Below, piece after piece: positions 2-60,440 of a DNA stretch of 64,000 bases; within the stretch, counting starts at the first letter, position 1; each line of letters starts with the position of its first letter. The DNA comes from an uncultured Candidatus Saccharibacteria bacterium (lineage in GTDB: Bacteria; Patescibacteriota; Doudnabacteria; UBA920), in contig CAZHIA010000008.1 of the NCBI GenBank assembly GCA_964532425.1, positions 13,224 through 77,223 on the forward strand, written 5' to 3'. Under the pieces are notes generated by a model. It was given only the letters and a program-made list of their open reading frames with translations. It was not told the DNA's origin and made no database searches. The translations under genes and the position numbers were made by a program.

Positions 2-205
2 CCCACAATTACCAATCCGGCTGCTACAACCAGTACAGCTCAGACTACGAGCAGTTCCCCAGTGCTTACCCAGAAATACAGTGTTAACCCTACTACCGGG
101 TTCTGCGATTGGGGTTCAGCTCCCCGTCTGAACTGTCCGGCAGGCCAGAGAGCTTTTGAAGATCCTAATAAGTGTACTCAGACGTGTACGGACCTCGGAT
201 TCTAG
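2..205 (+). CDS. 3' end of an upstream gene (partial); Thr/Ser/Pro-rich, Cys-containing C-terminal tail of a probable secreted protein
   Basis: Frame 2 is open from the window edge to TAG at 203-205 and is followed directly by a terminator hairpin. No start codon lies inside the window. Confidence 0.35.
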   Translation, partial: PTITNPAATTSTAQTTSSSPVLTQKYSVNPTTGFCDWGSAPRLNCPAGQRAFEDPNKCTQTCTDLGF

Positions 206-213
206 TATCAATC

Positions 214-246
214 AAAAATCCCCGCCTATAAGGCGGGGATTTTATG
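214..246 (+). terminator. rho-independent terminator
   Basis: Hairpin atccccgcc-tataa-ggcggggat followed by a T-run. Confidence 0.6.
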
Positions 247-377: not shown

Positions 378-393
378 TCCCGTCCCCACGGGA
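378..393 (+). promoter_or_regulatory. conserved 5' leader hairpin of paralog 1 (tcccg-tcccca-cggga), followed by AGAAA and about 22 nt to the ATG
   Basis: An equivalent hairpin plus AGAAA sits at the same distance upstream of all four paralogous genes (3833-3847, 44855-44870, 60409-60421). An A/T-rich -10-like hexamer (taatac) lies about 10 nt upstream. Confidence 0.45.
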
Positions 394-404
394 AGAAATC
401 AACA

Positions 405-3137
405 TTGAAGCACTCTATGTTCAAAAAACGCTTCTCAATGGCAGCCGTGCTCTGTCTGGCCCTTGCGGCCCTGCTGCCATCTTCGAGTTCGGCTTTAACT
501 TTAGCCGAACTGACCGGTACGGTAGCGAATTCCTCCTACACCCCGGTCACCATCACCTCAGCAACGAATAAGACCATAACCATTACGGCCACCCCGCTGT
601 CTTTTGCCAGCAACCAGTGGATGTACCAGGTCTCATGGAACCGGACCAAGAATGCCAAAGGATCTTTGTACGTCTCCTTAAAGTCCAACAACGGCACGAA
701 AGTTGCTGCGGTAGCTACCGCAGATCAGGCAGGATCGACTACCTTTACCGCTCTGCCTTCTACTGCTTACCGGGTCGAATTCTACTCCCAGCCAAATGGC
801 AAGGGCAGCCTGCTTGTCCGCAAGTACTTTACGGCACTGGCGGCAGATAAAGCGGTGGTGGGGAATTATAACCCTGCAAATTACAGCTCATTATATTCCG
901 GATTAACCGGAGTGGTTACGTCGGGTGGTAATCCTGCCACAGCTACTCCCGGAGCCACCAGCGGGTATACCCCGTCAGCCCAATTGATCCTCAGCCTTGC
1001 GTTGCCGGGCCAAGACCAGGCTATAAATAGTTCCAGTGGGTTAGATACTCCCGTAGAGGCCATTAGTACCAAAGTCGGCGGTCCTATTCCCATGAACAGC
1101 TCAGGCTTGGTTGTGGTTCGTCTGGCTTACCAGGGCAACGACGGCAAGTGCTATATGGCTAACCGCGACGGCACGTTCCTATTGCCGACTACGAACTGCA
1201 GTACTCTACCGAAATTACCGAATTCCAATTCAACTGTCTCTTTGTACGATATACCGTCCGTAGCGACTCCGTCTTTTAACTGGAATGCAGGCGGCGGCCA
1301 GTGCGCCTTCTGGGACAAGGATCAGCTGACAAAACAGCCATTCCTCAATCAGGCTATCTGTGGCACCATGGCCGGCCAGCCTATGCCGCCGACGAACTTC
1401 TGTGCCACGTACCCGAACGACTCCACGTGTGCCGGCGTCACTCAATCTGCACAAAAGATTCTTGATATGATCGCCGCAGTAGGACAAACCCAAAATATCG
1501 GCAGTACCGGAGGTTCTGATGCAGAAGTTGAAAGCATGAGCACCAGGGTTGGAGGTCCGATTCCCATGAACAACTCCGGATTAGTAGTTGTGCGTCTTGC
1601 GTATAAGGGCAATGACGGCAAATGCTACCTTTCCAACCGCGACGGTACATTCCTCCTGCCGACCACCAACTGCGGCAACCTGCCCACACTGCCAAATTCC
1701 AATAGCACCGTTTCTCCTTATGACATCAAGCCGGTAGCAACTTCTAATTTTAATTGGCTCGCAGGTTACGGTCAGTGTGCCTTCTGGGACAAGGACCGTA
1801 CAACCGGCGTGCCCTTCCTGAATCAGTCTATCTGCGGCACCATGGCCGGCCAGCCCATGCCAGTCATGAATTTCTGCGCAGCGCACCCTAATGATGAAAC
1901 ATGTAAAGGATATGTTCAATCCGCCCAAAACATTTTGAGTCTCGCTTTACCGGGCCAAGACCAGGCTATAAATAGTTCCAGTGGGTTAGATACTCCCGTA
2001 GAGGCCATTAGTACCAAAGTCGGCGGTCCTATTCCCATGAACAGCTCAGGCTTGGTTGTGGTTCGTCTGGCTTACCAGGGCAACGACGGCAAGTGCTATA
2101 TGGCTAACCGCGACGGCACGTTCCTATTGCCGACTACGAACTGCAGTACTCTACCGAAATTACCGAATTCCAATTCAACTGTCTCTTTGTACGATATACC
2201 GTCCGTAGCGACTCCGTCTTTTAACTGGAATGCAGGCGGCGGCCAGTGCGCCTTCTGGGACAAGGATCAGCTGACAAAACAGCCATTCCTCAATCAGGCT
2301 ATCTGTGGCACCATGGCCGGCCAGCCTATGCCGCCGACGAACTTCTGTGCCACGTACCCGAACGACTCCACGTGTGCCGGCGTCACTCAATCTGCACAAA
2401 AGATTCTTGATATGATCGCCGCAGTAGGACAAACCCAAAATATCGGCAGTACCGGAGGTTCTGATGCAGAAGTTGAAAGCATGAGCACCAGGGTTGGAGG
2501 TCCGATTCCCATGAACAACTCCGGATTAGTAGTTGTGCGTCTTGCGTATAAGGGCAATGACGGCAAATGCTACCTTTCCAACCGCGACGGTACATTCCTC
2601 CTGCCGACCACCAACTGCGGCAACCTGCCGAAGCTGCCGAACTCTAACTCAACCGTATCCTCAAGCGATATTCCCGCCATGGCCACCCCTTCATTCAATT
2701 GGATTGCCGGTTTTAGCCAATGTGCGTTTTGGGACAAAGACCAGATGACAAAAGAACCGTTCCTAAACCAGGCTATCTGTGGCACCATGGCCGGCCAGCC
2801 CATGCCGCCGACGAACTTCTGTACCGTGTATCCGAACGACCCAACCTGTAAGTTGCCAGCCGATGCTCCGTCCCAAGTGTATTATTCTGTCGGCCAAGTT
2901 ATCGACCCGAGACAGACATATGACTACGCAGGGCGTGCCATGTCCAAGAGTCAGTTCTGCGCAACGTATCCTTTCCAGAATTGTGGTGATTATTACGACA
3001 GCTGGTACCAGACTGGCGCTGCTCCGCAAACTTCCAGTCAGACCGCAACCGGCAAGGCGTGTTATGCGGCTTCGGATTGCTCGTCGGGCCAGGCCTGTTT
3101 CGGAGTATCTTACGGCAAGGCAGGAACCTGCCAATAG
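405..3137 (+). CDS. giant secreted Cys-rich tandem-repeat protein, paralog 1 of 4 (signal peptide, conserved N-domain, 4 x ~157-aa repeat modules with VGGPIPMN / NFNW / CAFWDKD / ICGTMAGQPMP motifs, Cys-rich C-tail)
   Basis: 910-aa ORF with an N-terminal hydrophobic signal peptide ending SSSA-LTLAELTG. Strong internal periodicity and many NxS/T sequons. The N-terminal ~140 aa are nearly identical to those of ORF 3872-6469. Confidence 0.85.
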   Translation: MKHSMFKKRFSMAAVLCLALAALLPSSSSALTLAELTGTVANSSYTPVTITSATNKTITITATPLSFASNQWMYQVSWNRTKNAKGSLYVSLKSNNGTKVAAVATADQAGSTTFTALPSTAYRVEFYSQPNGKGSLLVRKYFTALAADKAVVGNYNPANYSSLYSGLTGVVTSGGNPATATPGATSGYTPSAQLILSLALPGQDQAINSSSGLDTPVEAISTKVGGPIPMNSSGLVVVRLAYQGNDGKCYMANRDGTFLLPTTNCSTLPKLPNSNSTVSLYDIPSVATPSFNWNAGGGQCAFWDKDQLTKQPFLNQAICGTMAGQPMPPTNFCATYPNDSTCAGVTQSAQKILDMIAAVGQTQNIGSTGGSDAEVESMSTRVGGPIPMNNSGLVVVRLAYKGNDGKCYLSNRDGTFLLPTTNCGNLPTLPNSNSTVSPYDIKPVATSNFNWLAGYGQCAFWDKDRTTGVPFLNQSICGTMAGQPMPVMNFCAAHPNDETCKGYVQSAQNILSLALPGQDQAINSSSGLDTPVEAISTKVGGPIPMNSSGLVVVRLAYQGNDGKCYMANRDGTFLLPTTNCSTLPKLPNSNSTVSLYDIPSVATPSFNWNAGGGQCAFWDKDQLTKQPFLNQAICGTMAGQPMPPTNFCATYPNDSTCAGVTQSAQKILDMIAAVGQTQNIGSTGGSDAEVESMSTRVGGPIPMNNSGLVVVRLAYKGNDGKCYLSNRDGTFLLPTTNCGNLPKLPNSNSTVSSSDIPAMATPSFNWIAGFSQCAFWDKDQMTKEPFLNQAICGTMAGQPMPPTNFCTVYPNDPTCKLPADAPSQVYYSVGQVIDPRQTYDYAGRAMSKSQFCATYPFQNCGDYYDSWYQTGAAPQTSSQTATGKACYAASDCSSGQACFGVSYGKAGTCQ
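1005..2629 (+). repeat. perfect 945-bp tandem direct duplication inside paralog 1 (copy 1 1005-1684, copy 2 1950-2629; 680 bp at 100% identity, rest of each unit homologous)
   Basis: Read directly from the sequence. Identical minus-strand shadow ORFs at 1230-1493 and 2175-2438 (offset 945). Each 945-bp unit holds two ~157-aa protein modules. Confidence 0.9.
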
Positions 3138-3171
3138 TCGATTGTCTGAAGTTGTTCTTTAGTAATCTACA

Positions 3172-3206
3172 ATACAAGCCCCGTCCGAATGGATGGGGCT
3201 TGTTAT
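3172..3206 (+). terminator. rho-independent terminator after paralog 1
   Basis: Hairpin aagccccgtcc-gaat-ggatggggctt followed by a T-rich run. Confidence 0.55.
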
Positions 3207-3257
3207 TATTCGGTTAATCCAATGCTGGGTATTACTGTTTAGTGGTATAATAAATAC

Positions 3258-3803
3258 ATGCTTATCTATACTATATTTTTGTTTCTCATGCTGCTTTTGG
3301 CAATTGTAGTTTTGATTGTCATTACCAGCGCGTTTTTAGGTTTTTTACTCACCCGCGTGCCGTTCGTACCGACGGCTGCTAAGGACATTGAATTTGTAGT
3401 TGATGAATTAGGGATCTCAGGAAAAGATATCTTCTTTGACCTGGGTAGTGGAGACGGCAAGGTTGTTTTTTTAGTGCATGAACTCAGCGGCGCCAAATGC
3501 GTCGGATACGAACTTACCTGGTGGACCCATTTGCTGGCCAAGATCAAAGCAATGTTCAAAGGCGTGAGCCCGGATGTCCAGTTCAAGAATCAGAATTTTT
3601 TCAAACAGAGCTGGAGTGAAGCTGATTATGTGTATGGTTATCTCTATCCGCCTCTCATGGGCAGGGTAGAGGAGAAGTTCCTGAATGAATGTAAGCCGGG
3701 TAGTACGGCTGTTATTCGGGATTTTCCGCTGCCGAACTTAAAGCCAGTTGCAGTGTATAATCGGCCAAGGAACCATGAAATATATATTTATAAAAAACAG
3801 TAA
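3258..3803 (+). CDS. membrane-anchored class I SAM-dependent methyltransferase (small)
   Basis: N-terminal TM helix, then methyltransferase motif I DLGSGDGKVVF, with acidic and hydrophobic motifs downstream. Confidence 0.6.
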   Translation: MLIYTIFLFLMLLLAIVVLIVITSAFLGFLLTRVPFVPTAAKDIEFVVDELGISGKDIFFDLGSGDGKVVFLVHELSGAKCVGYELTWWTHLLAKIKAMFKGVSPDVQFKNQNFFKQSWSEADYVYGYLYPPLMGRVEEKFLNECKPGSTAVIRDFPLPNLKPVAVYNRPRNHEIYIYKKQ

Positions 3804-3832
3804 GCAATCTTTTTATAATCCAAATTAAGCAC

Positions 3833-3847
3833 TCCTGTCCTGCAGGA
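3833..3847 (+). promoter_or_regulatory. conserved 5' leader hairpin of paralog 2 (tcctg-tcctg-cagga) with TATAAT at 3814-3819
   Basis: Same architecture as 378-393: -10 box, ~13 nt, hairpin, AGAAA, ~22 nt, ATG. Confidence 0.5.
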
Positions 3848-3871
3848 AGAAACCAAATCACAAATTACCCT

Positions 3872-6469
3872 ATGTTTAAAAAGCCCATCATGTTGGTAGT
3901 CGTACTTTGTTTGGCCTTGGCCAGTCTGGTTCCCGGCACAGGTTCGGCCCTGACGCTCTCCGAAATAACGGGGACGCAGGCCGTATCTTCCTACACCCCG
4001 GTCACCATCACCTCAGCAACGAATAAGACCATAACTATTACGGCTACGCCGCTGTCTTTTGCCAGCAACCAGTGGATGTACCAGGTCTCATGGAACCGGG
4101 CCAAGAACGCCAAAGGGTCTTTGTACGTCTCTCTCAAGTCCAACAACGGCACGAAAGTTGCTACGGTAGCTACCGCTGACCAGGCAGGATCGACCACCTT
4201 TACCGCTTTGCCCTCCACTGCTTACCGGGTCGAATTCTACTCCCAGCCGAATGGCAAGGGGAGTCTCCTAGTCCGCAAGTACTTTACGGCGCTGGCGGCG
4301 GAGAAGGCAAGTGTTATTGCTAATCAACAAAATCCGATCACTCAGACAATTCCGAATGGTACTGCTCTTACTAGTCAGCAGCTATTGAATCTCGTCAAAG
4401 TGGATGCTGGGTGCCAAAGCCCTTCCCATGGTTGCGGTTATGCGGGCCTGCTCGCATCGTATGCAGCAAAAGTCGGTGGACCAATTGATATGAGCAAGAA
4501 TACCATGGTCCTGCAGATAGCGTACCGGACAACCGATGGCTGTTATTATTGGGACCGCGATGGGAAGTGGCAGCTGTCAGCTGACCCGAAAACCTGTACC
4601 GATTTGCCCGTCTTAGCTGGAGGGGTTATTCCCGATCCGGCCAATCCTGATTTTAATTGGACTGCCGCCCATGCCATGTGTGGTTGGAAGGATCGCGATA
4701 AAACATCCGGTATTCCTTTTATCAATAACAGCATTTGTGGCGGCACGACGTACATGCAGCGCGGGTTCCAGTGTTTGGAACACCAGGGTGATCCGAATTG
4801 CACAGGGTATACTGCAACAATCCAGGACTATATAAACTTGGTAAAGATGGATTCTGGTTGCCAGAGCGTGACTGACAATTGCGGGTATGGGGACCGGCTT
4901 GCGGCGGTATCCCAAAAAGTCGGGGCAGGAATTAACGTTAGTGCCAAACAAACTTCAGTAGTACAGATCTTCTATCGCACAGCTGACGGTTGCTACTACG
5001 CCGATCGCAGCGGGACATGGAAGATGCCGCTTGCTGCTTCCCAATGTACCCAGCTTCCGCTTATTGCGGGCAGTATTCCGGATCCGAACAATCCGGACTT
5101 TAACTGGACCGCGGCGCATGCTGCTTGCGCGTGGCTTGATCAGGACCATTTAACCAAACAACCGTTCATGAATGCTTCCATATGCGGGGGAACGGTATAT
5201 ACTCAGCAAGGGTATAATTGTGTTGAACATCAAAATGATCCGAGCTGCACCGGGTATACACCAACCATCCAAGACTATATCAATTTGGTACAGCGCGATT
5301 CCGGCTGCCAGAGCGTAACGGATAATTGCGGGTATGGCGACCGTTTAGCTGCGGTGTCCCAGAAAGTGGGTGCAGGAATTAACGTTAATGCCAAACAAAC
5401 CTCGGTATTGCAAATTTTTTACCGAACCAATGACGGTTGTTACTATTGGGACCGATCTGGCCAATGGAAACTTCCCGTAAAGAGCTGCGGTGAATTGCCT
5501 TTGCTGGTGAACGGAAGCTTGCCCGACCCCGCGAATCCTGACTTTAACTGGAATGCGTCCCGCGCAACCTGCGGCTGGCTCGACCAGGACCATTTAACCA
5601 AGCAGCCATTCATGAACAACAGTGTGTGCGGCGGTACAGTATATATGCAAAAAGGTTTTAACTGCGTGGAGCATTCGACCGATCCGACTTGTTCCGGATA
5701 TGCCAAGACAGTACAGGATTATATCAATCTCGTGCAATGGGATTCCGGCTGCCAGAGCGTGACTGACAATTGCGGGTATGGGGACCGGCTTGCGGCGGTA
5801 TCCCAGAAAGTGGGTGCAGGCCTGAATGTGACAGCAAAACAAACATCGGTACTGCAAATCTTCTATCGCACTGCGGACGGTTGTTACTACGCCGACCGTA
5901 GCGGGACGTGGAAGATGCCGCTTGCTACTTCCCAATGTACCCAGCTTCCGCTGGTCACGGGTAACTTGCCTGATCCCAATAATCCTGACTTTAATTGGAA
6001 TGGCGCACATGCATCGTGCGGCTGGTTGGACCAGGACCATCTCACCAAGCAGCCATTCATGAACAATAGTGTATGTGGCGGTACTGTATACATGCAAAAT
6101 GGCTGGTGCTCAACCCATCCTTCTGACAGCAGCTGTCAAACCCCTTACCCGGTTCGCGGCATTATGGATGGCAAACCGGCGTACCCGTGGACAACGCCAT
6201 CTCAGACCAGCAGCGGATATATGACCATAGACCAATTCTGTAGTTACTACAGCAATCTAGCTACCTTCCCGTACACGTATAAGTACAATGAATGCGTGGC
6301 ATACTACACAAGCATCCAGCAAAATGCATCTTTCGATACGTCCTCGCAAAGCGGCGCACAAGCGACGACCGGCAGCGGGGTAGGAGCCCCCTGTCGCGTT
6401 TGGACCCAGTGTGCAGCCGGTTTATGGTGTTATGATGTTACCCCTGACCATAACGGGTATTGCAGATAA
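3872..6469 (+). CDS. giant secreted Cys-rich tandem-repeat protein, paralog 2 of 4 (conserved N-domain; 4-5 x ~150-aa modules with QDYINLV / GCQS / DPxNPDFNW / CGW-D-D / ICGGT motifs; Cys-rich tail)
   Basis: 865-aa ORF with signal peptide. The N-domain is ~90% nt-identical to paralog 1 (3988-4299 vs 534-845). Internal repeats with period ~435-450 bp. Confidence 0.85.
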   Translation: MFKKPIMLVVVLCLALASLVPGTGSALTLSEITGTQAVSSYTPVTITSATNKTITITATPLSFASNQWMYQVSWNRAKNAKGSLYVSLKSNNGTKVATVATADQAGSTTFTALPSTAYRVEFYSQPNGKGSLLVRKYFTALAAEKASVIANQQNPITQTIPNGTALTSQQLLNLVKVDAGCQSPSHGCGYAGLLASYAAKVGGPIDMSKNTMVLQIAYRTTDGCYYWDRDGKWQLSADPKTCTDLPVLAGGVIPDPANPDFNWTAAHAMCGWKDRDKTSGIPFINNSICGGTTYMQRGFQCLEHQGDPNCTGYTATIQDYINLVKMDSGCQSVTDNCGYGDRLAAVSQKVGAGINVSAKQTSVVQIFYRTADGCYYADRSGTWKMPLAASQCTQLPLIAGSIPDPNNPDFNWTAAHAACAWLDQDHLTKQPFMNASICGGTVYTQQGYNCVEHQNDPSCTGYTPTIQDYINLVQRDSGCQSVTDNCGYGDRLAAVSQKVGAGINVNAKQTSVLQIFYRTNDGCYYWDRSGQWKLPVKSCGELPLLVNGSLPDPANPDFNWNASRATCGWLDQDHLTKQPFMNNSVCGGTVYMQKGFNCVEHSTDPTCSGYAKTVQDYINLVQWDSGCQSVTDNCGYGDRLAAVSQKVGAGLNVTAKQTSVLQIFYRTADGCYYADRSGTWKMPLATSQCTQLPLVTGNLPDPNNPDFNWNGAHASCGWLDQDHLTKQPFMNNSVCGGTVYMQNGWCSTHPSDSSCQTPYPVRGIMDGKPAYPWTTPSQTSSGYMTIDQFCSYYSNLATFPYTYKYNECVAYYTSIQQNASFDTSSQSGAQATTGSGVGAPCRVWTQCAAGLWCYDVTPDHNGYCR

Positions 6470-6696: not shown

Positions 6697-8049
6697 ATGA
6701 AAAGCATATTGCATAGCATGGGAGGGATTGTACTCGTGTTCATTGTCGTGTTACTGCTGTCCGGACCGGCCGTTCAGGCAGCCGCACTCAATCATCAGAT
6801 AAGCCTGCCTGACGGCTATACGTGGTGTTCGGATAGCGATATTACAGGCCTGTTAGACCAAATTAATGCCTTGCGGGCCAAAAATAACTTGCCAGCGCTG
6901 GTGATGGACCAGGTTGGTATGAAAGACGCCGAATTGCGGGCGGTACAGGCGGCCGAGTATTTGCAAAGCCATGCTCCGGGTTCACCCGGCTTCTTCCCGC
7001 ACGAAGGCTATGATACTACAGCCTCATCGCTCGGGTATAACCTCGTGAGCGAGAATATTGCTCTCTATTCGAACGATCCTTCAGCTATCGTAAACGGATT
7101 ATGGCAGGACAATTTGCATTTGGCTGCAATGCTGGATCGGCAGGCTAATGTCGCGGGTGTTTCCTGCGTAGTAAATGGCATTCCGTATTGGACGTTTGAA
7201 CCGGGAATTGGTTCTGCTGCTTCCGTTACCACCCCAACCCCAATCCAACCATCCGCTGCACCGGTCCCTGCGCCAGTGCTAAATCCGAACCCGATTACAA
7301 CTGCCACCGCCACTACTACAGCCAGCAGTGCTGTCACATCCGATGAATCAGATTTCCTGAGCTTGCTGAATACATACCGTACGCAGCAGGGGTTGGGAAC
7401 GGTTCAAATTTCACCGGTACTTCAGAGCGCTGCCAACTGGATGAGTAACGATATGGCCACGAGTAACAATATGGGCAGCCATATCGACACGTTAGGGCGC
7501 AACCCCTATAGCCGCCTGGCCGCGTTCGGTTACACCGGCTCTCCGTGGGGAGAGGTAATCGCCGGCGGGTATCAAAGCGCCCAAGATGTTCTCACGGGGT
7601 TCATTAATGCCTGCGATCCGGATGTAACCGGGGCATGCACGTATAATCACCGCAAAATGCTGCTTGGGGCAGGTTTTCAGACTGTAGGTATTTCTACTGT
7701 AAACGGGTATTGGGTAATAGATTTAGGGGGTGCACCGGACCAGTCAAGCGGTAGTCAGCAACCGCCAGCAACCAGTATGCCCAATCTGCCTGCAGGTACC
7801 ATACCAGCGGCACCCACGCCCACAACGGTAGGGGATCCTGTCCAGACAAGCCCGGCTCTACCGGGCGAACAAACGGACAATCGTGCTGCTCGCGGGCAAT
7901 CTGTCGACCCTTCTCCATTGCTGCCACCAGCACAATCAACGGCCTCCTCGACTGATGGTTTGTCACCAAATACTTACACAACCCCCAGGACGCAATCTTC
8001 TGGCAGGCACCGCAGGCATCGCATAGTATTCCATCCGGGCGCTCATTAA
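6697..8049 (+). CDS. secreted protein with two CAP/SCP (YkwD-like) domains and a Pro/Thr-rich C-terminal tail
   Basis: Signal peptide. Two segments match the CAP-domain pattern (LRAKNNLPAL...HAPG...GENIA... and FLSLLNTYRTQQGL...MSNDMA...SH...GEVIAGG...YW). Low-complexity P/T/S tail. Confidence 0.65.
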   Translation: MKSILHSMGGIVLVFIVVLLLSGPAVQAAALNHQISLPDGYTWCSDSDITGLLDQINALRAKNNLPALVMDQVGMKDAELRAVQAAEYLQSHAPGSPGFFPHEGYDTTASSLGYNLVSENIALYSNDPSAIVNGLWQDNLHLAAMLDRQANVAGVSCVVNGIPYWTFEPGIGSAASVTTPTPIQPSAAPVPAPVLNPNPITTATATTTASSAVTSDESDFLSLLNTYRTQQGLGTVQISPVLQSAANWMSNDMATSNNMGSHIDTLGRNPYSRLAAFGYTGSPWGEVIAGGYQSAQDVLTGFINACDPDVTGACTYNHRKMLLGAGFQTVGISTVNGYWVIDLGGAPDQSSGSQQPPATSMPNLPAGTIPAAPTPTTVGDPVQTSPALPGEQTDNRAARGQSVDPSPLLPPAQSTASSTDGLSPNTYTTPRTQSSGRHRRHRIVFHPGAH

Positions 8050-13205: not shown

Positions 13206-13247
13206 GATTTTACGATAGTATTATGATGATTGTAATAACGTATATCT

Positions 13248-40144: not shown

Positions 40145-43100
40145 TCAGAAAATGAAGCGCAGGCCGAGCTGCAGGCGTCGGGCATTGGTGCCGTCAGGGA
40201 ATCCCTGGGCGGCCGTGCCAGTGCCGAGACTGGTTTGATAGGTAAGCGTGGGAACGCCGGAGACGAGCGCATACGTGTACGCGCGGGTATTCACCGAAGT
40301 GAAGTACGGGCTGTTGAACACGTTGAATCCGTCAAACGTGAACATGGCTTTGTAGCGTTCATGAATCGTGACGGATTTGCTCAGGCGCAGGTCAATGCGG
40401 GTGATCTGGTCAACGAGCACGCTGGACGTCGGTAGGAATGGCGCACGGGTGTTGCCGCCGTACCCGTTCAAAGTGCTACCGGTGAAAGCGACAGCATAGC
40501 CGGCAGGCACATAGGCCGAAGACAGTGAGACCACCGGTGTAACAGCCGGGGCTGACTGGAACGTACCCAGGCCTGAAAGGCTCCAGCCGTTGAGCAAATA
40601 CTTCAAGCGATGGTCATTGCTGACGAGTGTCGGGCTGTAGCTGCCGTTCATGACGAGCCGGTGCCGGACATCGAGCGCAGCCGTGCCTTTTTCCACGCGG
40701 TAGTTGCCGGGCATGTAGCTCTGCGGGCCGCCGCTGGCGAAAATATTTGGCGTGCCGGCGAAGCCTTGTCCCTGATCAATCGCATGCGACCATGTATAGG
40801 CGGCGCTGCCGGTCAGTCCGTGACTGAAACGCTTGCTCAATTGGACAGACAGGCCGTTGTACCAGCTGTTCAAGCCGGCATCAATGATGTTGATGCGGCT
40901 GTAGCGAGTATCGACGCGGTTGCTGCGAATGTAGACCGGCGTCGAATATGTGAATGCCTGCGTCGGGTTGCCCGGGGTGCCGATGACGTTGTAAGTCACG
41001 GTCGGGCCCGGGGCGCCGATGTTGATGTCATTGACCGAGGTCAGATGCAGTCCACGGCTCCACATGCCGGAGACCGTGAGTGCGAGGTCGCGGGCAAGCT
41101 GCCGTTCAATGGCGAGATTTGCTTGCTGCGTGTACGGAGCGCGGAAGTCGCTGGCTGCAATATTCAGACTAACCGAACCGGCCGGAGGGTTGTAGTTTCC
41201 GGAGTTCGGCAGCACATTCGGGAAGACCGGTCCTGCCGCCTTGTCAGCGGCATTCGACGATTGCAGCGAGATCGACTTTTGGTAGATGCCGTTACCGAGG
41301 AAGAACGTATTGATAAGTCCTCCCGGGTAGCGGGCATAAAACATGCCGTATCCTCCGCGCAGGACAGTCTTGCTTTGGCTGTCGAGCGAGTAGGCAAAGC
41401 CGATGCGCGGCGCAAAGGCTCCGGCAAACGTCGGGATGACCCCGGTAGCCTTATAGTCAGGGTTGGTGACGGTCGGCTGGGGTAGGGCGCTGTAGTCGTA
41501 GCGGACGCCTAAGTTCAAGGTCAGACGCTGCGTGATTTTGAGCTGGTCCTGAACGAAGAACGCGTAATCCTTAATCGCGAAGTCGACCAGGGGATTGCCG
41601 ATAGTCTGCGAAAAAGACGTCCAGTTTTTGGTTCCAGTCGTATTGCCGGTCAGGTCAGCCGCCAGAGCGCTGAATGACGGATAGCTGTAGGTACCGGTGC
41701 GGTTGAACAGCATATTCGTCAGGTCGCGTGTGCGCATGAACTCAAAACCGAACTTGACGGTCTGGGAGCCTTTGATCCAGGTGAGCGTATCCGCAATTTG
41801 GTGGCGCGTTTCGATCGGGTTCAGGCGCGGATAATCCGTAGCCGTTCCAAGGTAGCTCTGTCCCGTGATGCTGATGCCCAAGAAACCTTGCGGCACAATA
41901 CTCGAGGGAAGAGCTAAGCTCTGGTTCGGGTAGTCGAACAACTTGTCGTAAAACCAGTTGTATCGAAGCTCGTTGACCATGGTCGGCGTGGGGATGAAGG
42001 TCCACGAGGCGCGGCCGTATTTGTCGCGCACCGAGGAATCGACGTTGTTGCCGACGCCATTTCCGTTATTCAGTACTGCCTGGGTTTGCAGCCCGTTGGG
42101 TGAGACCCAGCGAAGCATATTCATCCCGACAGTAAACGAGTGGCGTTCATTCGGCCGGTAGTCAATCTTGGCATACCCAAGGTTCTGGTTGACCGAACGC
42201 GGAACGGTTTGAAATTCGCGATTGAGGAACGTCCGGGCGGCCGCACATTGTTCCGGCGTAGCCGGGGCGCCGCAGGTGCCGATGAACTGGCCGGTAGTGC
42301 TAAACAGCGGATTTCCTGCTCCGGTGATTGAAGCGATGAGAGGGAAGTCCCGCCACAAGCCTTCGTAGTTAACGAAGTAGAACAGCTTGTCGCGGATGAT
42401 CTTGCCACCAAGGCTGCCGCCGAGCTGGTTGCGCTTTTCGGTCGGGTTGAACCGCTTGCCCGTGGTCGGGTCAATGGTTGCAAAAATATCCGTGGCATTA
42501 AAGTTCTGGTTCCGGAAGAACCAGTACCCGGTTCCGTGGAATTCATTGCCGCCGCTGCGGGTCACCGTGTTGACGACACCGCCCATGGCGCGTCCGAATT
42601 CAGCGGAAAAGTTGTTGGAAACAACTTGGAACTCCTGTACCGCATCTTGTCCGATTTGGGATCCGATGCGGGTACGGCCGGCGTTTTCATTATAGTAACC
42701 GTTGGTCGTATCGCCGCCGTCCGTTAGGAAGGTGTTGCCGCCGGCAATGCCGCGGAACGAGATAAGCCCGAACGTACCGTCAGGAACGACCGCGGGCGAC
42801 AGGAGAACGAACGAGTCCACGCGGCGGCCATTGATCGGGAGATCCTGAATCTGGGTCGATCCAACCACTTGTGACACGTCGGTCTTGGTGGAATCGACAA
42901 TAGGCGCTGCAGCCTCGACTTGCACTGAGGTTGCGGCGCTGGCCAGCTGGAGTTCGATGTTGAGCATCAAATTTTGGCCGACCAGGACCTGGATGTCCTT
43001 GGCTTTGTACTCGGCAAAACCGGGACTTGAGACCATAACGCTGTAGCCTTCCGCAGGCGTCAGCGAGGGAGCGGAGAATATTCCGGCCTCGGTTGTCGCC

Positions 43101-43282
43101 ATAGCGCGCTGAATACCTTTGGTTTCATTGACAATGAAGACCTTGGCATTCGGAATGGCAGCGCCTGACGGGTCATGTACGGAGCCGGAAATGGCTCCGA
43201 GACCGGCCACAGACTGGCCGAAGGCCAGCGAGGCGAAGATAAACAAAAATACGACTCCCGCGAGCGCGGTAAATCGTCTCAT
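40145..43282 (-). CDS. TonB-dependent outer-membrane receptor with N-terminal carboxypeptidase-regulatory-like domain
   Basis: Signal peptide, CarbopepD_reg-like beta-sandwich (SGSVHDPSGAAIPNAKVFIVNETKG...), plug domain (TFLTDGGDTTNGYYN), a 1045-aa beta-barrel and C-terminal LRFIF with a terminal aromatic. Locally higher GC. Confidence 0.8.
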   Translation of the reverse strand: MRRFTALAGVVFLFIFASLAFGQSVAGLGAISGSVHDPSGAAIPNAKVFIVNETKGIQRAMATTEAGIFSAPSLTPAEGYSVMVSSPGFAEYKAKDIQVLVGQNLMLNIELQLASAATSVQVEAAAPIVDSTKTDVSQVVGSTQIQDLPINGRRVDSFVLLSPAVVPDGTFGLISFRGIAGGNTFLTDGGDTTNGYYNENAGRTRIGSQIGQDAVQEFQVVSNNFSAEFGRAMGGVVNTVTRSGGNEFHGTGYWFFRNQNFNATDIFATIDPTTGKRFNPTEKRNQLGGSLGGKIIRDKLFYFVNYEGLWRDFPLIASITGAGNPLFSTTGQFIGTCGAPATPEQCAAARTFLNREFQTVPRSVNQNLGYAKIDYRPNERHSFTVGMNMLRWVSPNGLQTQAVLNNGNGVGNNVDSSVRDKYGRASWTFIPTPTMVNELRYNWFYDKLFDYPNQSLALPSSIVPQGFLGISITGQSYLGTATDYPRLNPIETRHQIADTLTWIKGSQTVKFGFEFMRTRDLTNMLFNRTGTYSYPSFSALAADLTGNTTGTKNWTSFSQTIGNPLVDFAIKDYAFFVQDQLKITQRLTLNLGVRYDYSALPQPTVTNPDYKATGVIPTFAGAFAPRIGFAYSLDSQSKTVLRGGYGMFYARYPGGLINTFFLGNGIYQKSISLQSSNAADKAAGPVFPNVLPNSGNYNPPAGSVSLNIAASDFRAPYTQQANLAIERQLARDLALTVSGMWSRGLHLTSVNDINIGAPGPTVTYNVIGTPGNPTQAFTYSTPVYIRSNRVDTRYSRINIIDAGLNSWYNGLSVQLSKRFSHGLTGSAAYTWSHAIDQGQGFAGTPNIFASGGPQSYMPGNYRVEKGTAALDVRHRLVMNGSYSPTLVSNDHRLKYLLNGWSLSGLGTFQSAPAVTPVVSLSSAYVPAGYAVAFTGSTLNGYGGNTRAPFLPTSSVLVDQITRIDLRLSKSVTIHERYKAMFTFDGFNVFNSPYFTSVNTRAYTYALVSGVPTLTYQTSLGTGTAAQGFPDGTNARRLQLGLRFIF

Positions 43283-43591: not shown

Positions 43592-44818
43592 ATGGATATG
43601 GTTAAAATAAAACGGGTCAAGCGCCAGAAAAAGCGGAGCACTGCAGCCGAAAAGATTATGGCGGGTTTGGGACTTGGAACGACCTTGCTCGGTATGACCG
43701 GCGGTGCAGTAGCGCCAAAAAAAAGCAATAAGGCTATAGTCCGCACCAACGCTTCATCACGAGCCCGTCAAATCGGCTTGATGATGCACCAGGCCCTGCA
43801 GTCAAGCGTGGGTACGCCGACGGCCAAGGCGGCAGAAACCGATGAAGAATGGGAGGGTGATGACGAAGCTACCCCAACCGATACGACCCCGAGCGATGAC
43901 GTGGAAAATTCCGATGATGCTGCGTCTTCCAATGATTGGCAATATGGGACACCGGACGATGCCGAGACAGAAACCAGTGAAAGCGGTACGGAAGCCACAG
44001 ACGATACCGATACCGATATCGAAAACGGAGAGGATGCCGTAGGGGAGGGGCAGGATATTGAATTGGCTGATGATCAGGAAACGGCGGATGAAACCGAACT
44101 GGCTGAAGTTGATAATGAGGACGTAAATATTGTGAACGGACAGGTGTATACAACGAACGGGAGTACGGTTGCCAATAACCAAAGTGGAACCAGCGTGTTA
44201 GATTCGCATGGGGTCTTGGCCATAAACGGGCAGGTCTATAATCAGGGAGATACTGATGTGGAAGAGTCAGAGGATGGTTCAGGTAATTTGGTTGCAGCTG
44301 CCGCTGACAGCATCGAGATGGCCAATAATTTCGGCAATCCCCAAGGCTTACAGATGCCGACCGGTTACCAAACTTTCCAGGATGAGAGCGAAACGTCTGA
44401 AGCAGAGGCGGATTCCGAAGCGGAGCCGGCTGCTGCCCGTACCTATAAGGTTAAGAAAGGTGACACCTTATGGGGTATTTCGCGAAAGTATTATGGCCGC
44501 GGCATCCTGTGGCGGAAGATTATGAATGCCAATGCAGACAAAGTAACTGAGCCGAGGCTTCTTCAGATCGGTACTGTGTTGACTATCCCGCCGCTTGAAC
44601 AGTCGGATCTGGAATCTATTCCCAGAGCTGCCGTGAAAACAAAAACCCAAACCCATGCTTCCCCGTCAACCGGTGATCCATTCGGCAGCCAGCAGTATGG
44701 ATATGATTCCGGCTCAAGCAATAGCGGGGGATATACTCCGGGATTCCTACTGCAGGATTTTCAGACACAAAACAACACTGACTCGTCACAAGAGGGATCT
44801 GATATCGAGAGTGAATAA
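43592..44818 (+). CDS. LysM-domain protein with long acidic (D/E/T-rich) low-complexity region
   Basis: LysM: [18 protein letters not shown]...IMNANADKV...[11 protein letters not shown]-terminal TM/signal segment. Confidence 0.65.
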
Positions 44819-44854: not shown

Positions 44855-44870
44855 TCCCGCCCCTGCGGGA
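44855..44870 (+). promoter_or_regulatory. conserved 5' leader hairpin of paralog 3 (tcccgc-ccct-gcggga), followed by GGAAATAAAC and 21 nt to the ATG
   Basis: Same element as upstream of the other three paralogs. Preceded by tatatcaa, a -10-like box. Confidence 0.45.
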
Positions 44871-44891
44871 GGAAATAAACACACACGTTCT

Positions 44892-47800
44892 ATGTTCGCA
44901 AAGCGTCTTTCCTGGGTAGCCGCGCTCTGCCTTGCCCTCACGGCCCTGTTGCCGTCTTCGGGTTCGGCACTGACTCTGGCTGAGCTGACCGGCACGGCAG
45001 CCACCTCAAGCTATAGCCCGATCACCATCACTTCGGCTTCCAATAAAACCATTACCATCACTGCGACGCCGCTGTCCTTTGACGGTTCAGCCTGGACCTA
45101 CCAAGTCGCCTGGAACCGGGCCAAGAATGCCAAGGGTTCGCTCTATGTTTCGCTTAAGTCCAATGCCGGCATCAAGGTTGCCAGCGTGGCTGCCGCTGAC
45201 CAGGCCGGGACAGTGGCCTTCACCGCGCTGCCTGGAACAGTTTTCCGGGTCGAATTCTACTCCCTGCCGAATGGCAAGGGGAGCCTCTTAGTCCGTAAGT
45301 ACTTTACGAGCCTCTCGGCAGACAAGGCGGTAGCAACGACAGGGGCAGCAAGCAATTCTCCATATTTAATGGGAACTAATGGTTATACGTTTGCAAATAC
45401 CGGCACGAGTTCCACATATGGAGTTGGAACGAGTGGTTATACTGCCGTAGGTACTGCCACAAGCCCTGCTTTAGCGGTGACAAATGGCAATACTGTGTAC
45501 TGGCCGGTTTCCACTTTACAGAAAGACCCAAGCCCAACCAGTGCCAATAATCCATACTGCAAAAGTTCTAACGGACAATCCTGTTATGCCATACCTGCAG
45601 CTTTAGACCCTGTTCAAAACTATGATTTGAGCCTTAAGCATTCAACTCCGGAACAAAGCAGCCAGTGGGTGGTCGCATACAATTATCGATCGGCAACTAC
45701 AGGCAAGTGTATGCACTATGACGCAGCGGGGACGCGCTCGGAAATTCCTTGCTATGCCGACCATCCGCTGCCGACCGTATCCGACAGTTATGTCCCGACC
45801 TTTAACGATCCGACTTTCCGTTTTGATTTAGCAAATGCGACTTGTGTGTATACCGGTGCGTATTCTGCCTATAAAGACTGGGGTCATAGCCATTGGGACT
45901 TCTGTACCGGTTATGGCGGCACTGCCTGGGCGGGCGCTGTCCCTTATACCGTAGTTGATTCCAATAATCCCGTTTCCGGCAACCCAACTATCACCACTAC
46001 AACCACCACCACTACCAATCCTAACCCTGCTCTTACTACCGTTAATCCTACAACTACTGTCATCGGTAATGTTGAATATAAAACCGTCGGCCAAATTTTA
46101 CAGGAAAAGTACGGTATCAACTGGGATCCGACAAACAAGCCAAAAGATCCGCAACCTTCAGGGATAAACAATTATTACTCCTCAACCTATCTTGCCCCGC
46201 TTCCCAGTCAGAGTGTTGGTCTGAATTATGTTAATGCCAACAAGGGTGCGAGTGTACAAATGGTGCTGGGTATGAATTACACCGACGGCAAAGGCAATTG
46301 CTATCACGTCGATTTTTCAACCGGTCAAAAAGTAGTATCGCACCTTGATTGTTATGCTGACCGTCCTTTGCCTGTAATTACCGGTGATGTCCCGGCTCCA
46401 ACCAATGACAACTCGAATTTCCCTTGGTCATTGGCGAATGCCACATGTATTTATATAGCCGGTAACAGTCCATATAAAAATCCGGGAGCGAGCCACTACA
46501 ATAGCTGTGGGGGTACTGACCCGGCAAATATCCCAGGTCCCAGCACGACAGTTGATGTGAATGAAAAAGTTGCTATTAAATATAACGGGGTGAGTATTGA
46601 TACTGACCCGTATAATCCAAAAAATCCGTATGCTCCGCGCGTAGATAATTACTCCTACGCGATGCCCACAATTGACACAGGTCTTAAATTGGTGGATGCC
46701 AATGGCGGTATGAGTGTGCTTTGGGTTCAGAGCTTCCTGTATAAAGACGCCAGTGGCGCATGCCATAAAATGGATAGCACGAGCGGTACGCCGGTTGTGA
46801 GCGACATCCCGTGTTACGCCAACCATCCGCTTCCAACATGGACAAAATCTACCCCGCCCGCCCAAAATGACCCGACTTTCGATTGGACCATGTCCAACGC
46901 CCAGTGTTTGTACACTGCCGGCAGGGGTAAACCGATACCCGGTGCCAGCGAACTCTTGAGTTGCGGGGTGGCTGGTGTAAATCGAGACCCCGGTTACTTC
47001 CAGAATCCTATTTATCCGGTAAACCCTGATGTCAAATTGCCGTCTTCCACAGACCCGTCAATTGTAACTTCTGTAACTTATCGTCAGGTTTCGGGAACCA
47101 CCAGCGGCGCCGTGATTTGTTATAAAACTCAGCGGGTAAAGGGCGCTAACTCTTTGTACCCCAATGAATACACGATGGTTACCACTACTGTCACTTGTCC
47201 AGACCCGCTTCCTCCGGTTTTGGTGGTTGGCCAGGTACCAAGCGCCAATGATACGAATTTTAACTGGGCGGCGGCTAACGCTACTTGCGTGAGAAAAGCT
47301 GACAACTCTCCTGTTCCTTGCGGAACCAGCGCGGCTTCTACCGGTATAAATGGACAGTGTGGCTCGGTCTCCGGACAGATCTATACCTCGTTAAGTTCCT
47401 CAGCTTCTGGTTTGTGTACGGTCGGCACGATGTCAGGTTTTTCCGGCACCGGCCCCTGGAGTTGGTCATGCAGCGGTAATAACGGTGGTATTGCGGCAAC
47501 CTGCTCCGCGTATGCCAACTCGAGCCAGCAGCAGGCAGGCCAGCAGACTTTGTATGCCAAGCAAACCGCATGCCAGACTTCCGGCGGGACCTGGGTTGCC
47601 AGTACTTCTGTATGCGTGCCTCCCAGCTCAACTACCACCAATCAGCCCGCTATCAACGAGCCTTCTTCCGGTTCTGTCGGCCAGAAAGCGACAATTAACA
47701 CTCCTAACACTGGTGGAGTTGGCGCGTTCCTGAACATGTCGAGCAGTAACCCCAGTGTATGTTCCGTACCTTCGACGGTATACGTAAAGCCGAATGATCC

Positions 47801-47903
47801 ACTCAGTACGCCGTCCTGCACCTGCACGGGCAAGGGGACCACCACTGTCACCATTTCCGGCGCGGGTTTTCAGACCTCGACCGAAACGATCACCTGCAAC
47901 TAG
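44892..47903 (+). CDS. giant secreted Cys-rich tandem-repeat protein, paralog 3 of 4 (conserved N-domain; 4 modules with CYADHPLP / NDPTF-F / ANATC-Y motifs; poly-Thr linker; Cys-rich tail)
   Basis: 1003-aa ORF. Signal peptide and N-domain align with paralogs 1, 2 and 4 (ALTLAELTGT...SSY.P.TITSA.NKTITITATPLSF...RAKNAKGSLYVSLKSN...RVEFYS.PNGKGSLLVRKYFT). Confidence 0.85.
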   Translation: MFAKRLSWVAALCLALTALLPSSGSALTLAELTGTAATSSYSPITITSASNKTITITATPLSFDGSAWTYQVAWNRAKNAKGSLYVSLKSNAGIKVASVAAADQAGTVAFTALPGTVFRVEFYSLPNGKGSLLVRKYFTSLSADKAVATTGAASNSPYLMGTNGYTFANTGTSSTYGVGTSGYTAVGTATSPALAVTNGNTVYWPVSTLQKDPSPTSANNPYCKSSNGQSCYAIPAALDPVQNYDLSLKHSTPEQSSQWVVAYNYRSATTGKCMHYDAAGTRSEIPCYADHPLPTVSDSYVPTFNDPTFRFDLANATCVYTGAYSAYKDWGHSHWDFCTGYGGTAWAGAVPYTVVDSNNPVSGNPTITTTTTTTTNPNPALTTVNPTTTVIGNVEYKTVGQILQEKYGINWDPTNKPKDPQPSGINNYYSSTYLAPLPSQSVGLNYVNANKGASVQMVLGMNYTDGKGNCYHVDFSTGQKVVSHLDCYADRPLPVITGDVPAPTNDNSNFPWSLANATCIYIAGNSPYKNPGASHYNSCGGTDPANIPGPSTTVDVNEKVAIKYNGVSIDTDPYNPKNPYAPRVDNYSYAMPTIDTGLKLVDANGGMSVLWVQSFLYKDASGACHKMDSTSGTPVVSDIPCYANHPLPTWTKSTPPAQNDPTFDWTMSNAQCLYTAGRGKPIPGASELLSCGVAGVNRDPGYFQNPIYPVNPDVKLPSSTDPSIVTSVTYRQVSGTTSGAVICYKTQRVKGANSLYPNEYTMVTTTVTCPDPLPPVLVVGQVPSANDTNFNWAAANATCVRKADNSPVPCGTSAASTGINGQCGSVSGQIYTSLSSSASGLCTVGTMSGFSGTGPWSWSCSGNNGGIAATCSAYANSSQQQAGQQTLYAKQTACQTSGGTWVASTSVCVPPSSTTTNQPAINEPSSGSVGQKATINTPNTGGVGAFLNMSSSNPSVCSVPSTVYVKPNDPLSTPSCTCTGKGTTTVTISGAGFQTSTETITCN

Positions 47904-47918
47904 AGCAGTACAGCATAA

Positions 47919-47955
47919 AAAACAAGCCTCCGGAAAATGCCGGAGGCTTGTTTGT
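47919..47955. terminator. bidirectional terminator between paralog 3 and the convergent minus-strand gene
   Basis: aaaaacaagcctccgg-aaaat-gccggaggcttgtttgtttt. Confidence 0.6.
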
Positions 47956-48777: not shown

Positions 48778-48980
48778 AGGAATGGAGTAAATTTTGTTTC
48801 TAAAAAGTTGCCTTATTTACGCCCCCAGTATACACCGAAACGCCTGGCGTGTTAAGGGAAGAGTGTTGCGGGGATAAAACGACTTTTGTTACGCAGGAAA
48901 ATATTTTTTTGATTGCAATTTCGGTTTGTAATGGAATATAGCCGTAAAAAATCTTGCATAACAAGGAGTGCCATCGTAGA

Positions 48981-49802
48981 ATGAACGAAAGTCTTCCATT
49001 AAAATGCAAAAGCTTGATCAAACCAATTAAAATTATTTCCGGAGTCTCGGTGGCAAGTGTTCTCTTATTGGCCGGATACTTGTACGCTTCGTCCTTGCCG
49101 CTTCGGGAACCGGTGCAACATAGTCCTGTTGGGGACACGGCAGTCGCCGTCCTCCAGGAAACTGCATCTTCGTCTCAACCGGCTGTAGAAGCTCCTGCTG
49201 CAACCACAACAGGCAACAGTTCTGCAACGGCCAAAGTACAGAATCAGGGTTTGCTTTCTAAGGCGGTGAGTACGGCAGATGCGCAGGAGGAGTCGCCGTC
49301 GAGTTTGCAGGCTCTGGCCAACAGCGTTACGCCTGATCCGGTGACGCTTCGTATCCCGTCTATTCAACTGGTCGCACCCATCGTCAAGACCGGACTTGAG
49401 AAGGACGGTTCCTTGCACGTGCCGAGTTCGCCGGACCAGACAGGATGGTACTCTCTTGGCACCAGGCCGGGGGACATTGGCCCTGCTGTCATTACCGGAC
49501 ATTATGATTCAAAATTTGGCCCAGGAATTTTATATAATTTAAAGAATATCAAGGCAGGTGATCAGATCCAGGTGGTGAGGGACGACGGAACAGTCGCGGT
49601 GTTTGCAGTCGATCGCCTTGCACTCTATCCGCAGGACAATTTTGCCACCCAGGAAGTCTATGGCAGTATTGAGAGCGCCGGTTTGCGCATTATTACTTGT
49701 GCCGGAACCTATAGCAAGAAAACCGGCCATTATTCGGATGATCTGGTCGTGTATGCTACGTTGAGGCAGGTGCTGGTGCCGGGTGCGTATCAGCCGCTCT
49801 GA
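48981..49802 (+). CDS. sortase-family transpeptidase
   Basis: N-terminal TM anchor, catalytic His (VITGH), TLxTC-like RIITCAG Cys, conserved Arg downstream. Confidence 0.7.
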   Translation: MNESLPLKCKSLIKPIKIISGVSVASVLLLAGYLYASSLPLREPVQHSPVGDTAVAVLQETASSSQPAVEAPAATTTGNSSATAKVQNQGLLSKAVSTADAQEESPSSLQALANSVTPDPVTLRIPSIQLVAPIVKTGLEKDGSLHVPSSPDQTGWYSLGTRPGDIGPAVITGHYDSKFGPGILYNLKNIKAGDQIQVVRDDGTVAVFAVDRLALYPQDNFATQEVYGSIESAGLRIITCAGTYSKKTGHYSDDLVVYATLRQVLVPGAYQPL

Positions 49803-58609: not shown

Positions 58610-59122
58610 TTATGGTTTGACCGTGCAGTCCTTGAATGTTTGTACGCCGTTCTCTTCCAGGAAGGCAGTATCGCCTTTATTCCAGAAGACCTGAGTCTCG
58701 TCGCTATTGGCATAGCGGGCGCCGGAAGCGGATATGGCAATAGGCAGTGTCAGCTTCCTGCCATCACTGAGCGTAAGGTCCACCTTGGCTGACGGTTCGC
58801 TTTCATATACGGCGGTCATATATTTTTTCCCGGTACAGACAAAACCAACCGGCGTCGAGGGGTTGCAGGCTTCTTCCCACGAACGCAAACATTTTTGCTT
58901 GGTTTCGCACCATTGGTAGCCAGCAGAGCCAATACAGCCGTGGCTGTCGCGGTCATTGCCAACCATTTGATTTTCCTGCACAGGAGTTTTTTTGGGGAAC
59001 GAGCTGGCGTCGACCGCTACGGAACTTAGGTCAGCTTGTTTGCGGACATAGTAGTAGGTGCCGCATGCTGCTGCGATGACGCCGACAATAATAAGGACTG
59101 TTACTGATATTTTTTTATGCAT
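58610..59122 (-). CDS. membrane-anchored MliC-like (C-type lysozyme inhibitor) protein with N-terminal DRDxHGCIGSAGYQWC module
   Basis: MHKKISVTVLIIVGVIAAACG anchor. The C-terminal ISASGARYANSDETQVFWNKGDTAFLEENG matches the MliC/PliC SxSGAxY...FWxKGxEA signature. The 526-aa ORF 58610-60190 is an over-extension through the opposite-strand CDF gene. Confidence 0.6.
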   Translation of the reverse strand: MHKKISVTVLIIVGVIAAACGTYYYVRKQADLSSVAVDASSFPKKTPVQENQMVGNDRDSHGCIGSAGYQWCETKQKCLRSWEEACNPSTPVGFVCTGKKYMTAVYESEPSAKVDLTLSDGRKLTLPIAISASGARYANSDETQVFWNKGDTAFLEENGVQTFKDCTVKP

Positions 59123-59236
59123 TTTGGTTTCTGGTGTTATTGGTTCACTGGTAGTATAGCGCAAAAATATTATTGGTAAAACCTCTTGCATTGCTTGGGA
59201 ATTTGCAGTATAGTATATGGTCTTAAGGAGGGCATT

Positions 59237-60408: not shown

Positions 60409-60421
60409 TCCCTTTTAGGGA
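60409..60421 (+). promoter_or_regulatory. conserved 5' leader hairpin of paralog 4 (tccct-ttt-aggga), followed by AGAAAAATTAAAAC and 19 nt to the ATG
   Basis: Same element as upstream of the other three paralogs. cataataac, a -10-like box, lies about 10 nt upstream. Confidence 0.45.
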
Positions 60422-60440
60422 AGAAAAATTAAAACATCCT

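Follow-up and report, generated by a model that had tools for sequence, protein, structure and literature searches.

An exported, cysteine-rich paralog family with a constant Ig-like N-terminal domain and an uncatalogued repeat module in an uncultured Patescibacteriota bacterium

This analysis concerns a family of long, cysteine-rich proteins encoded in a stretch of 64,000 nucleotides (the window) from an uncultured Candidatus Saccharibacteria bacterium (GTDB lineage Bacteria; Patescibacteriota; Doudnabacteria; UBA920), namely positions 13,224 to 77,223 of contig CAZHIA010000008.1 in assembly GCA_964532425.1. The window contains four such genes, the paralogs A to D (Table 1), the products of which share a signal peptide, a constant N-terminal domain (N-domain) and tandem cysteine-rich modules. 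This layout had been proposed in an initial annotation made from the DNA alone, and it was borne out: the region encoding the signal peptide and the N-domain is 66-91% identical across A-D at the DNA level (direct-repeat analysis) and 56-79% identical at the protein level. All four long open reading frames (ORFs) are intact and uninterrupted, and the frameshifts or signs of pseudogenisation that had been named as counter-evidence were absent. Because the ratio of nonsynonymous to synonymous substitutions (dN/dS) is low (0.07-0.21), A-D are real genes and not chance ORFs. The four copies that had been noticed are genuine, but the family is larger, and a search with B retrieved seven members on the source contig of 81,404 bp, i.e., A-D (A = P0002, B = P0001, C = P0006, D = P0007) and P0003, P0004 (paralog F) and P0005. 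The C-terminus of P0004 is encoded at 2-202 of the window, and F, A and B thus lie in a row. In the public annotation of D (P0007, 1015 aa) the start is placed 10 codons downstream, which cuts into the signal peptide; the alignment of the paralogs favours the ATG at 60441.

The signal peptides of all seven paralogs are built alike and comprise a basic n-region with the residues KKR, a hydrophobic core and an AxA-type cleavage site between S-S-A and L-T-L. The N-domain of about 105 aa, which has a conserved A-L-T-L-x-E-L leader, always stands directly behind the signal peptide and is followed by a linker stretch rich in serine, threonine, glycine and asparagine. It is a seven-stranded beta-sandwich and thus, at the level of the fold, an ordinary representative of the Ig-like/FN3 type, so that the novelty initially attributed to it does not extend to its fold. 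In Pfam all matches of the N-domain stayed below the threshold, the best being SdrD_B with 23 bits (cut-off 29.7), while fn3 reached an E value of 0.036 in two of 13 members, and a profile search of the PDB sequences yielded nothing below an E value of 0.2. The mature proteins contain 30, 38, 28, 32, 28, 28 and 24 cysteines, an even number in every case, as is to be expected if exported proteins of this kind are fully disulfide-bonded. A, B, D and E end with a tail of four cysteines (C-x5-C-x3/4-C-x10/11-C, then the end of the protein), which is also the end of relatives from other lineages (P0009, P0019, P0020, and P0025). The Cys-knot-like tail predicted for the four window proteins is therefore present in A, B and D, but C carries a different C-terminal domain instead. 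A further cysteine motif of C (CGS..G......LC..G..SGFSG.GPWSW.C.G.NGG....C.AY, aa 818-874) also occurs in P0008 and P0021 and has no match in Pfam.

Using an iterative hidden Markov model seeded on one module of B, four modules were found in each of A-D, and not the four to five that had been counted before. Their periods are about 157 aa in A, 149 aa in B, 130-156 aa in C and 191 aa in D, internal tandem repeats with periods of about 474, 447 and 573 nt appeared in the direct-repeat analysis, and the numbers of cysteines per module are 6 (A), 8 (B), 4-6 (C) and 6-8 (D). The seven paralogs together contain 26 modules of about 110-190 aa, three or four copies per protein. From an alignment of these 26 modules, and then of the 77 unique modules of all relatives, the signature Y-x4-G-x-C-Y-x2-D-x2-G-x8-C-x4-P ... 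A-x-C-x19-C-G was derived, and in most paralogs it is preceded by a G-T-x-V-G-x-x-I motif. Only the twelve residues Y, G, C, Y, D, G, C, P, A, C, C and G, including four cysteines, are conserved in the 77 modules, and additional, paralog-specific pairs of cysteines raise the number per module to 4-8. A conserved set of histidine, serine, glutamate or lysine residues, as would be typical for a catalytic site, is missing from the 77 modules. The restriction of conservation to cysteine, glycine, proline, tyrosine, alanine and a single aspartate speaks for a domain that is stapled by disulfides and serves for binding or as a scaffold, and not for an enzyme.

The prediction that the modules belong to no catalogued family was upheld, since no family-level match was found in Pfam or NCBIfam. 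The sole match above threshold, and hence the only candidate for the strong match to a characterised family that had been named as an argument against novelty, was DUF7374 (PF24089) on B. Membership in this family was rejected because the score of 32.6 bits (cut-off 27) arises from the summing of repeats: single modules match with about 15 bits, in three of the 26 modules and at positions 28-91 of the 106 profile positions only, and there was no match in A, C, D, E, F, G or ten relatives tested. In a module profile search of the PDB sequences the best E value was 0.82. An AlphaFold model of the second module of B (B2) has medium confidence, with a predicted local distance difference test score (pLDDT) of 78.5, a predicted TM score (pTM) of 0.76 and core values of 81-91, and its comparison with the PDB using Foldseek gave a best E value of 0.59 and TM values below 0.22. 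Neither in sequence nor in its modelled structure does the module resemble catalogued folds of carbohydrate-binding modules (CBM), lectins or C-type lectins. A literature search on DUF7374, on the sample SRR11567520 and on cysteine-rich surface proteins of Saccharibacteria or Patescibacteria retrieved nothing relevant.

When 1.84 billion cluster representatives were searched exhaustively with the module profile (hmmsearch), 29 proteins were obtained at E values of 0.001 or below, six of which are the contig's own paralogs and about 22 of which come from other metagenomes. Paralog C is probably represented there by P0008, a relative with 63% identity, as the clustering at 50% suggests. The borderline match P0030, a WG-repeat protein (E 7e-4), was taken as a chance match to the motif Y/I-D-x-x-G-x...C. 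Relatives were absent from GenBank phages, PLSDB plasmids and IMG/VR, and an origin of the family from phages or plasmids was therefore rejected. A metagenome scan with the module motif revealed four loci; the scan with N-domain patterns found no relatives in a collection that lacks the respective samples (P0010 is a JGI sequence). Taken together, the exported paralog family is real and well delimited, and it combines a familiar protein class with a new module.

In the relatives, the modules are found together with different N-termini. Modules stand behind the same N-domain in P0009, P0010, P0012, P0021, P0025 and P0027, whereas P0008, P0011, P0015, P0023, P0024 and P0028 have N-termini that are hydrophobic or form coiled coils, for example MQTLITLLQSVLVLL... 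or LLAQLQSLQALVVSLQ; in some relatives, the N-terminal helices resemble those known from surface proteins of the candidate phyla radiation. A single module makes up part of the small proteins P0019 and P0020 (270-310 aa), and in P0026 (1969 aa; L006 10001-15910) two CAP domains are joined with a single module and with Big-like repeats of great length. Conversely, at locus L001 the N-domain is fused to a module-free, unrelated C-terminal passenger (1399 aa), and P0008, which is 63% identical to C over 823 residues, has no signal peptide and no N-domain but a coiled-coil N-terminus. The presence of the N-domain on unrelated passengers and of a C-type passenger behind a coiled coil indicates that the N-domain acts as an exchangeable constant unit. 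Two of the loci have peculiarities of their own. L003 (4868-9642), which comes from a second organism of the same sample (SRR11567520), carries P0021 and P0009 next to each other and beside five prepilin-type (N_methyl) genes. In L001 (1-12315) the guanine-plus-cytosine (GC) content falls from 0.58-0.67 in the first 10 kb, which contain the N-domain and LysM genes, to 0.45-0.49 in the final 2 kb. This drop suggests either a join made by chimeric co-assembly or an island that was acquired, and it weakens the label 'Ca. Saccharibacteria' of the respective metagenome-assembled genome.

The family had been suggested to be diversifying, on the basis of its layout with a constant N-domain, variable modules, multiple copies and recombinogenic identical blocks. 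Using the Nei-Gojobori method, dN/dS values of 0.09-0.21 were obtained for the N-domain between paralogs and of 0.07-0.37 for the modules within a paralog, as far as the synonymous divergence (dS) could be estimated, and for most module pairs synonymous sites are saturated. Only two comparisons look recent, i.e., modules A1 and A3 (99% identity at the protein and 96% at the DNA level) and the N-domains of A and B (96% identity, dS 0.34 versus values above 1 for the other pairs). These two near-identical blocks, together with the clustering of several copies within 81 kb, would fit antigenic or phase variation, with the constant N-terminus as a recombination handle and modules that are shuffled by gene conversion to evade phages, predators or the host. 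However, dN/dS is low throughout, all copies examined are full length and have their own signal peptide, and the four copies in the window also have their own leader. Strong hairpins follow A and C, no copy resembles a silent cassette, and tandem simple repeats are absent from the vicinity of the four genes, no search aimed specifically at invertible promoters having been made. Families of antigenic-variation cassettes are marked by silent or partial copies, by gene conversion of recent date in the variable part and by selection that is relaxed or positive, and these hallmarks do not characterise the family. In addition, the passenger regions of the paralogs share only 20-34% identity within the genome, in contrast to 63%, 58% and 42% identity of C, E and G, respectively, with their counterparts in other organisms. 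This indicates that the paralog types are old and conserved, which counts against a rapidly diversifying family and makes antigenic variation quite improbable. Of the proposed diversifying adhesin, an adhesin-like or binding role is still the best guess, but the diversification is not supported. The same holds true for the suggested glycosylation: N-x-S/T sequons exceed the expectation from shuffled sequences only in A and B, they are depleted in C, and their number is as expected in the remaining paralogs.

Table 1. Features of the paralog family and of its neighbourhood (window coordinates)
Feature	Coordinates	Strand	Details
Paralog F, 3' end	2-205	+	last 67 codons and stop; frame-2 translation equals the C-terminus of P0004 (831 aa)
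Paralog A	417-3137	+	906 aa from ATG 417, ORF opens at TTG 405; signal peptide 417-494, N-domain 495-833, four modules 981-2873, 4-Cys tail 3051-3134
Paralog B	3872-6469	+	865 aa; signal peptide 3872-3949, N-domain 3950-4288, four modules 4379-6154, 4-Cys tail 6383-6466
Paralog C	44892-47903	+	1003 aa; signal peptide 44892-44969, N-domain 44970-45308, four diverged modules 45504-47393
Paralog C, C-terminal parts	47343-47900		CGS...GPWSW...NGG Cys motif 47343-47513; different C-terminal domain 47739-47900 replaces the 4-Cys tail
Paralog D	60441-63518	+	1025 aa; signal peptide 60441-60518, N-domain 60519-60857, four modules 61029-63320, 4-Cys tail 63423-63515
Leader hairpin and RGGARGAAA, A	378-398	+	upstream of A
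Leader hairpin and RGGARGAAA, B	3833-3852	+	upstream of B
Leader hairpin and RGGARGAAA, C	44855-44875	+	upstream of C
Leader hairpin and RGGARGAAA, D	60409-60426	+	upstream of D
Terminator-like hairpin	215-243	+	after F; 13 bp stem and T-run
Terminator-like hairpin	3174-3203	+	after A
Hairpin, 14-bp stem	47920-47953		between the convergent C and DUF5666 genes; reported by the scan for the minus strand
Membrane-anchored LysM protein	43592-44818	+	basic N-terminus (VKIKRVKR) followed by a transmembrane helix, an acidic linker and a LysM domain at the C-terminus; immediately upstream of C
Double CAP/SCP-domain secreted protein	6697-8049	+	directly downstream of B, no predicted terminator between
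Small protein between A and B	3258-3803	+	N-terminal transmembrane helix, RVPFVPT motif, weak class-I methyltransferase match (DOT1-like, 25 bits)

The genes A-D are preceded by a common leader element, a short hairpin of the form TCCY-N4-11-RGGA with compensatory changes in the stem, which is followed by RGAAA and is situated 20-28 nt ahead of the ATG. Exactly four copies of the 9-mer RGGARGAAA exist on the two strands of the window, all of them at the leaders of A-D; hairpins of a similar kind are also located upstream of relatives in L003 and L001. The shared leader suggests a common regulation of the four genes, and it could act as a 5' stabiliser of the mRNA or as an operator. A function of RGGARGAAA as a Shine-Dalgarno site was ruled out for B, where the motif and the sole start codon that is possible are 20 nt apart. 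The hairpin in the convergent intergenic region behind C probably also terminates the transcript of C.

A conserved neighbour encodes a membrane-anchored LysM protein. In four of five lineages, namely the window, L001 (4343-5461), L004 (2356-9636) and L005 (3-383), a LysM gene lies immediately upstream and on the same strand of a gene for an N-domain protein, P0010 in the case of L004 and P0025 in the case of L005. Orthology of the LysM proteins is evident at both ends, with a basic N-terminal motif and a transmembrane helix at one and the LysM domain at the other; the linker between them is variable, and the total size ranges from 372 to 2426 aa, the latter in L004. The gene is absent from L003, although this locus has N-domain proteins, and it is also absent from all seven loci that contain modules without an N-domain. 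Therefore, it is the N-domain to which the LysM gene is linked, and not the module. Genes for a glycerate kinase and a 2-hydroxyacid dehydrogenase are further neighbours that L004 has in common with the window, and L004 thus stems from a related organism.

The CAP-domain protein encoded behind B resembles the N-terminus of P0026, which constitutes a gene-fusion link between CAP domains and the module. The gene between A and B had been taken for a membrane methyltransferase; the N-terminal transmembrane helix was confirmed, but the methyltransferase assignment amounts to a weak DOT1-like match. Its product, which presumably resembles membrane-anchored lysine methyltransferases, is a neighbour only and was not seen beside relatives elsewhere. 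Further exported proteins encoded in the neighbourhood are a sortase (48954-49802) and an MliC protein. The latter is part of an ORF of 526 aa on the minus strand (58610-60190), of which only the last ~170 residues (MHKKISVTVL..., a transmembrane helix and MliC) are likely to be a real gene; the ORF is probably over-called, and an ORF of 335 aa on the plus strand overlaps it. The remaining parts of the window are ordinary chromosomal DNA with genes for enolase, pyruvate kinase, pyruvate phosphate dikinase (PPDK), DnaG and RpoD. The adjoining genes for CAP-domain, LysM and MliC (lysozyme-inhibitor) proteins are all related to the cell wall, and the paralogs are exported, disulfide-rich and present in multiple copies, as might be expected for secreted lytic or antimicrobial effectors or toxins aimed at neighbouring cells, with the cysteine-rich modules for delivery or targeting. 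Such a function is nevertheless improbable, because signatures of toxins, hydrolases or immunity genes were not detected, catalytic residues are not conserved, and relatives do not occur on phages or plasmids.

The reading that we favour, albeit tentatively, is that the paralogs are Sec-exported, disulfide-stabilised proteins of the cell envelope, with a function in binding and none in catalysis. The type-I signal peptide would be removed after export via the Sec pathway, and the protein would fold under oxidative conditions. The constant N-domain would hold the protein at the envelope, probably together with the peptidoglycan-binding LysM protein, the gene of which lies directly upstream in most lineages. 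The linker rich in serine, threonine and glycine would be followed by three or four modules as the working part, each with two conserved disulfide bonds and with paralog-specific pairs in addition, and the 4-Cys mini-domain or another small domain would form the cap. As the module types of the seven paralogs have diverged anciently, we propose that each paralog would recognise a different ligand; glycans, polymers of the cell wall or surfaces of partner cells may serve as such.

Several observations weigh against this reading. No homology points to any of these ligands. The apparent lack of a counterpart of the module fold in the PDB could partly reflect errors of the model, given its medium confidence. 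Only one of the seven paralogs of this genome adjoins a LysM gene. Furthermore, no recognised signal for anchoring or for a dedicated secretion route was found. The lipobox pattern [LVI][ASTVI][GAS]C does not match, as the cysteine of the signal peptide lies within the hydrophobic core (A-V-L-C-L-A-L-A), with a leucine at -1, and it is missing from relatives in other lineages. A regular-expression scan of the window ORFs yielded no true LPXTG sorting signal, the C-termini have no transmembrane segment, and no family match was obtained for S-layer homology (SLH) or other S-layer anchoring domains. Likewise, no paralog has a match in Pfam or NCBIfam to an autotransporter (type V secretion system, T5SS) barrel, a TPS domain, the C-terminal Por_Secre_tail of the type IX secretion system (T9SS) or RTX repeats at E values of up to 1. 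Finally, if the cell is a diderm, as the gene for a barrel protein of 1045 aa might imply, a protein that is exported by Sec only would be retained in the periplasm instead of arriving at the surface.

This barrel gene lies on the minus strand (40145-43282) and encodes a CarboxypepD_reg and OMP_b-brl_4 outer-membrane protein (394 bits). It is part of a stretch with a higher GC content (0.57 versus about 0.51). The barrel gene would imply either a diderm cell or horizontal acquisition, and it conflicts with the label 'Ca. Saccharibacteria' of L001, the only labelled locus among the related ones. Retention in the periplasm would also be in agreement with a structural role, in which the paralogs form a scaffold, a sheath or an S-layer-like lattice of the periplasm or cell wall, with modules as rigid spacers and the N-domain for oligomerisation or contact to the wall. 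The conserved residues are purely structural, the LysM partner is predicted from its domain to bind peptidoglycan, and strong terminators and a private 5' hairpin would fit abundant transcripts. However, seven paralogs with passengers of only 20-34% identity are hard to fit into one lattice, SLH or other S-layer signatures are missing, and the module also occurs singly in the small proteins P0019 and P0020. A structural role appears unlikely to us; it would gain weight in a diderm cell.

Compared with the envelope-binding reading as such, a more far-reaching version seems doubtful at present, namely that the module represents a new disulfide-rich extracellular binding fold of a few uncultivated lineages and that it is combined with a new non-covalent mode of display, in which the FN3-like N-domain docks onto the LysM partner. 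If this were true, the seven paralogs would equip the cell with a set of different specificities for attachment, e.g., to host cells or partner cells. If the module binds, a new fold would be added to the adhesion and lectin domains of microbes, and if the pair of N-domain and LysM protein docks, it would be a new way of wall display in poorly known bacteria. The module family has about two dozen representatives in 1.84 billion protein clusters and is not represented in Pfam or NCBIfam, and in this genome it is expanded to seven copies within 81 kb.

Exported tandem-repeat proteins on Ig-like scaffolds are already a familiar class, and the working module is the new part. The closest resemblance is to the MSCRAMM/Sdr-type adhesins with SdrD B, CnaB or SpaA-like domains, which likewise have a Sec signal peptide, Ig-like beta-sandwiches and stable modules in tandem and occur as families with multiple paralogs. 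The N-domain gives weak matches to SdrD_B, SpaA and Cadherin-like profiles (18-23 bits versus a cut-off of 29.7). However, the present family has no LPXTG signal, its module is not an Ig fold, and its stability would come from the predicted disulfide bonds instead of isopeptide bonds or calcium sites. From the FN3/DUF3244 beta-sandwiches the N-domain differs by the lack of a significant match to Pfam fn3 or to a PDB sequence, by its position behind the signal peptide and by its A-L-T-L-x-E-L leader. A third parallel is offered by the LysM-anchored surface proteins and autolysins of Firmicutes, because the genetic coupling to a peptidoglycan-binding LysM protein in four lineages suggests a wall-associated display also in this case. 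However, LysM is not fused to the displayed protein here but sits on a separate membrane-anchored protein, onto which the displayed protein would dock.

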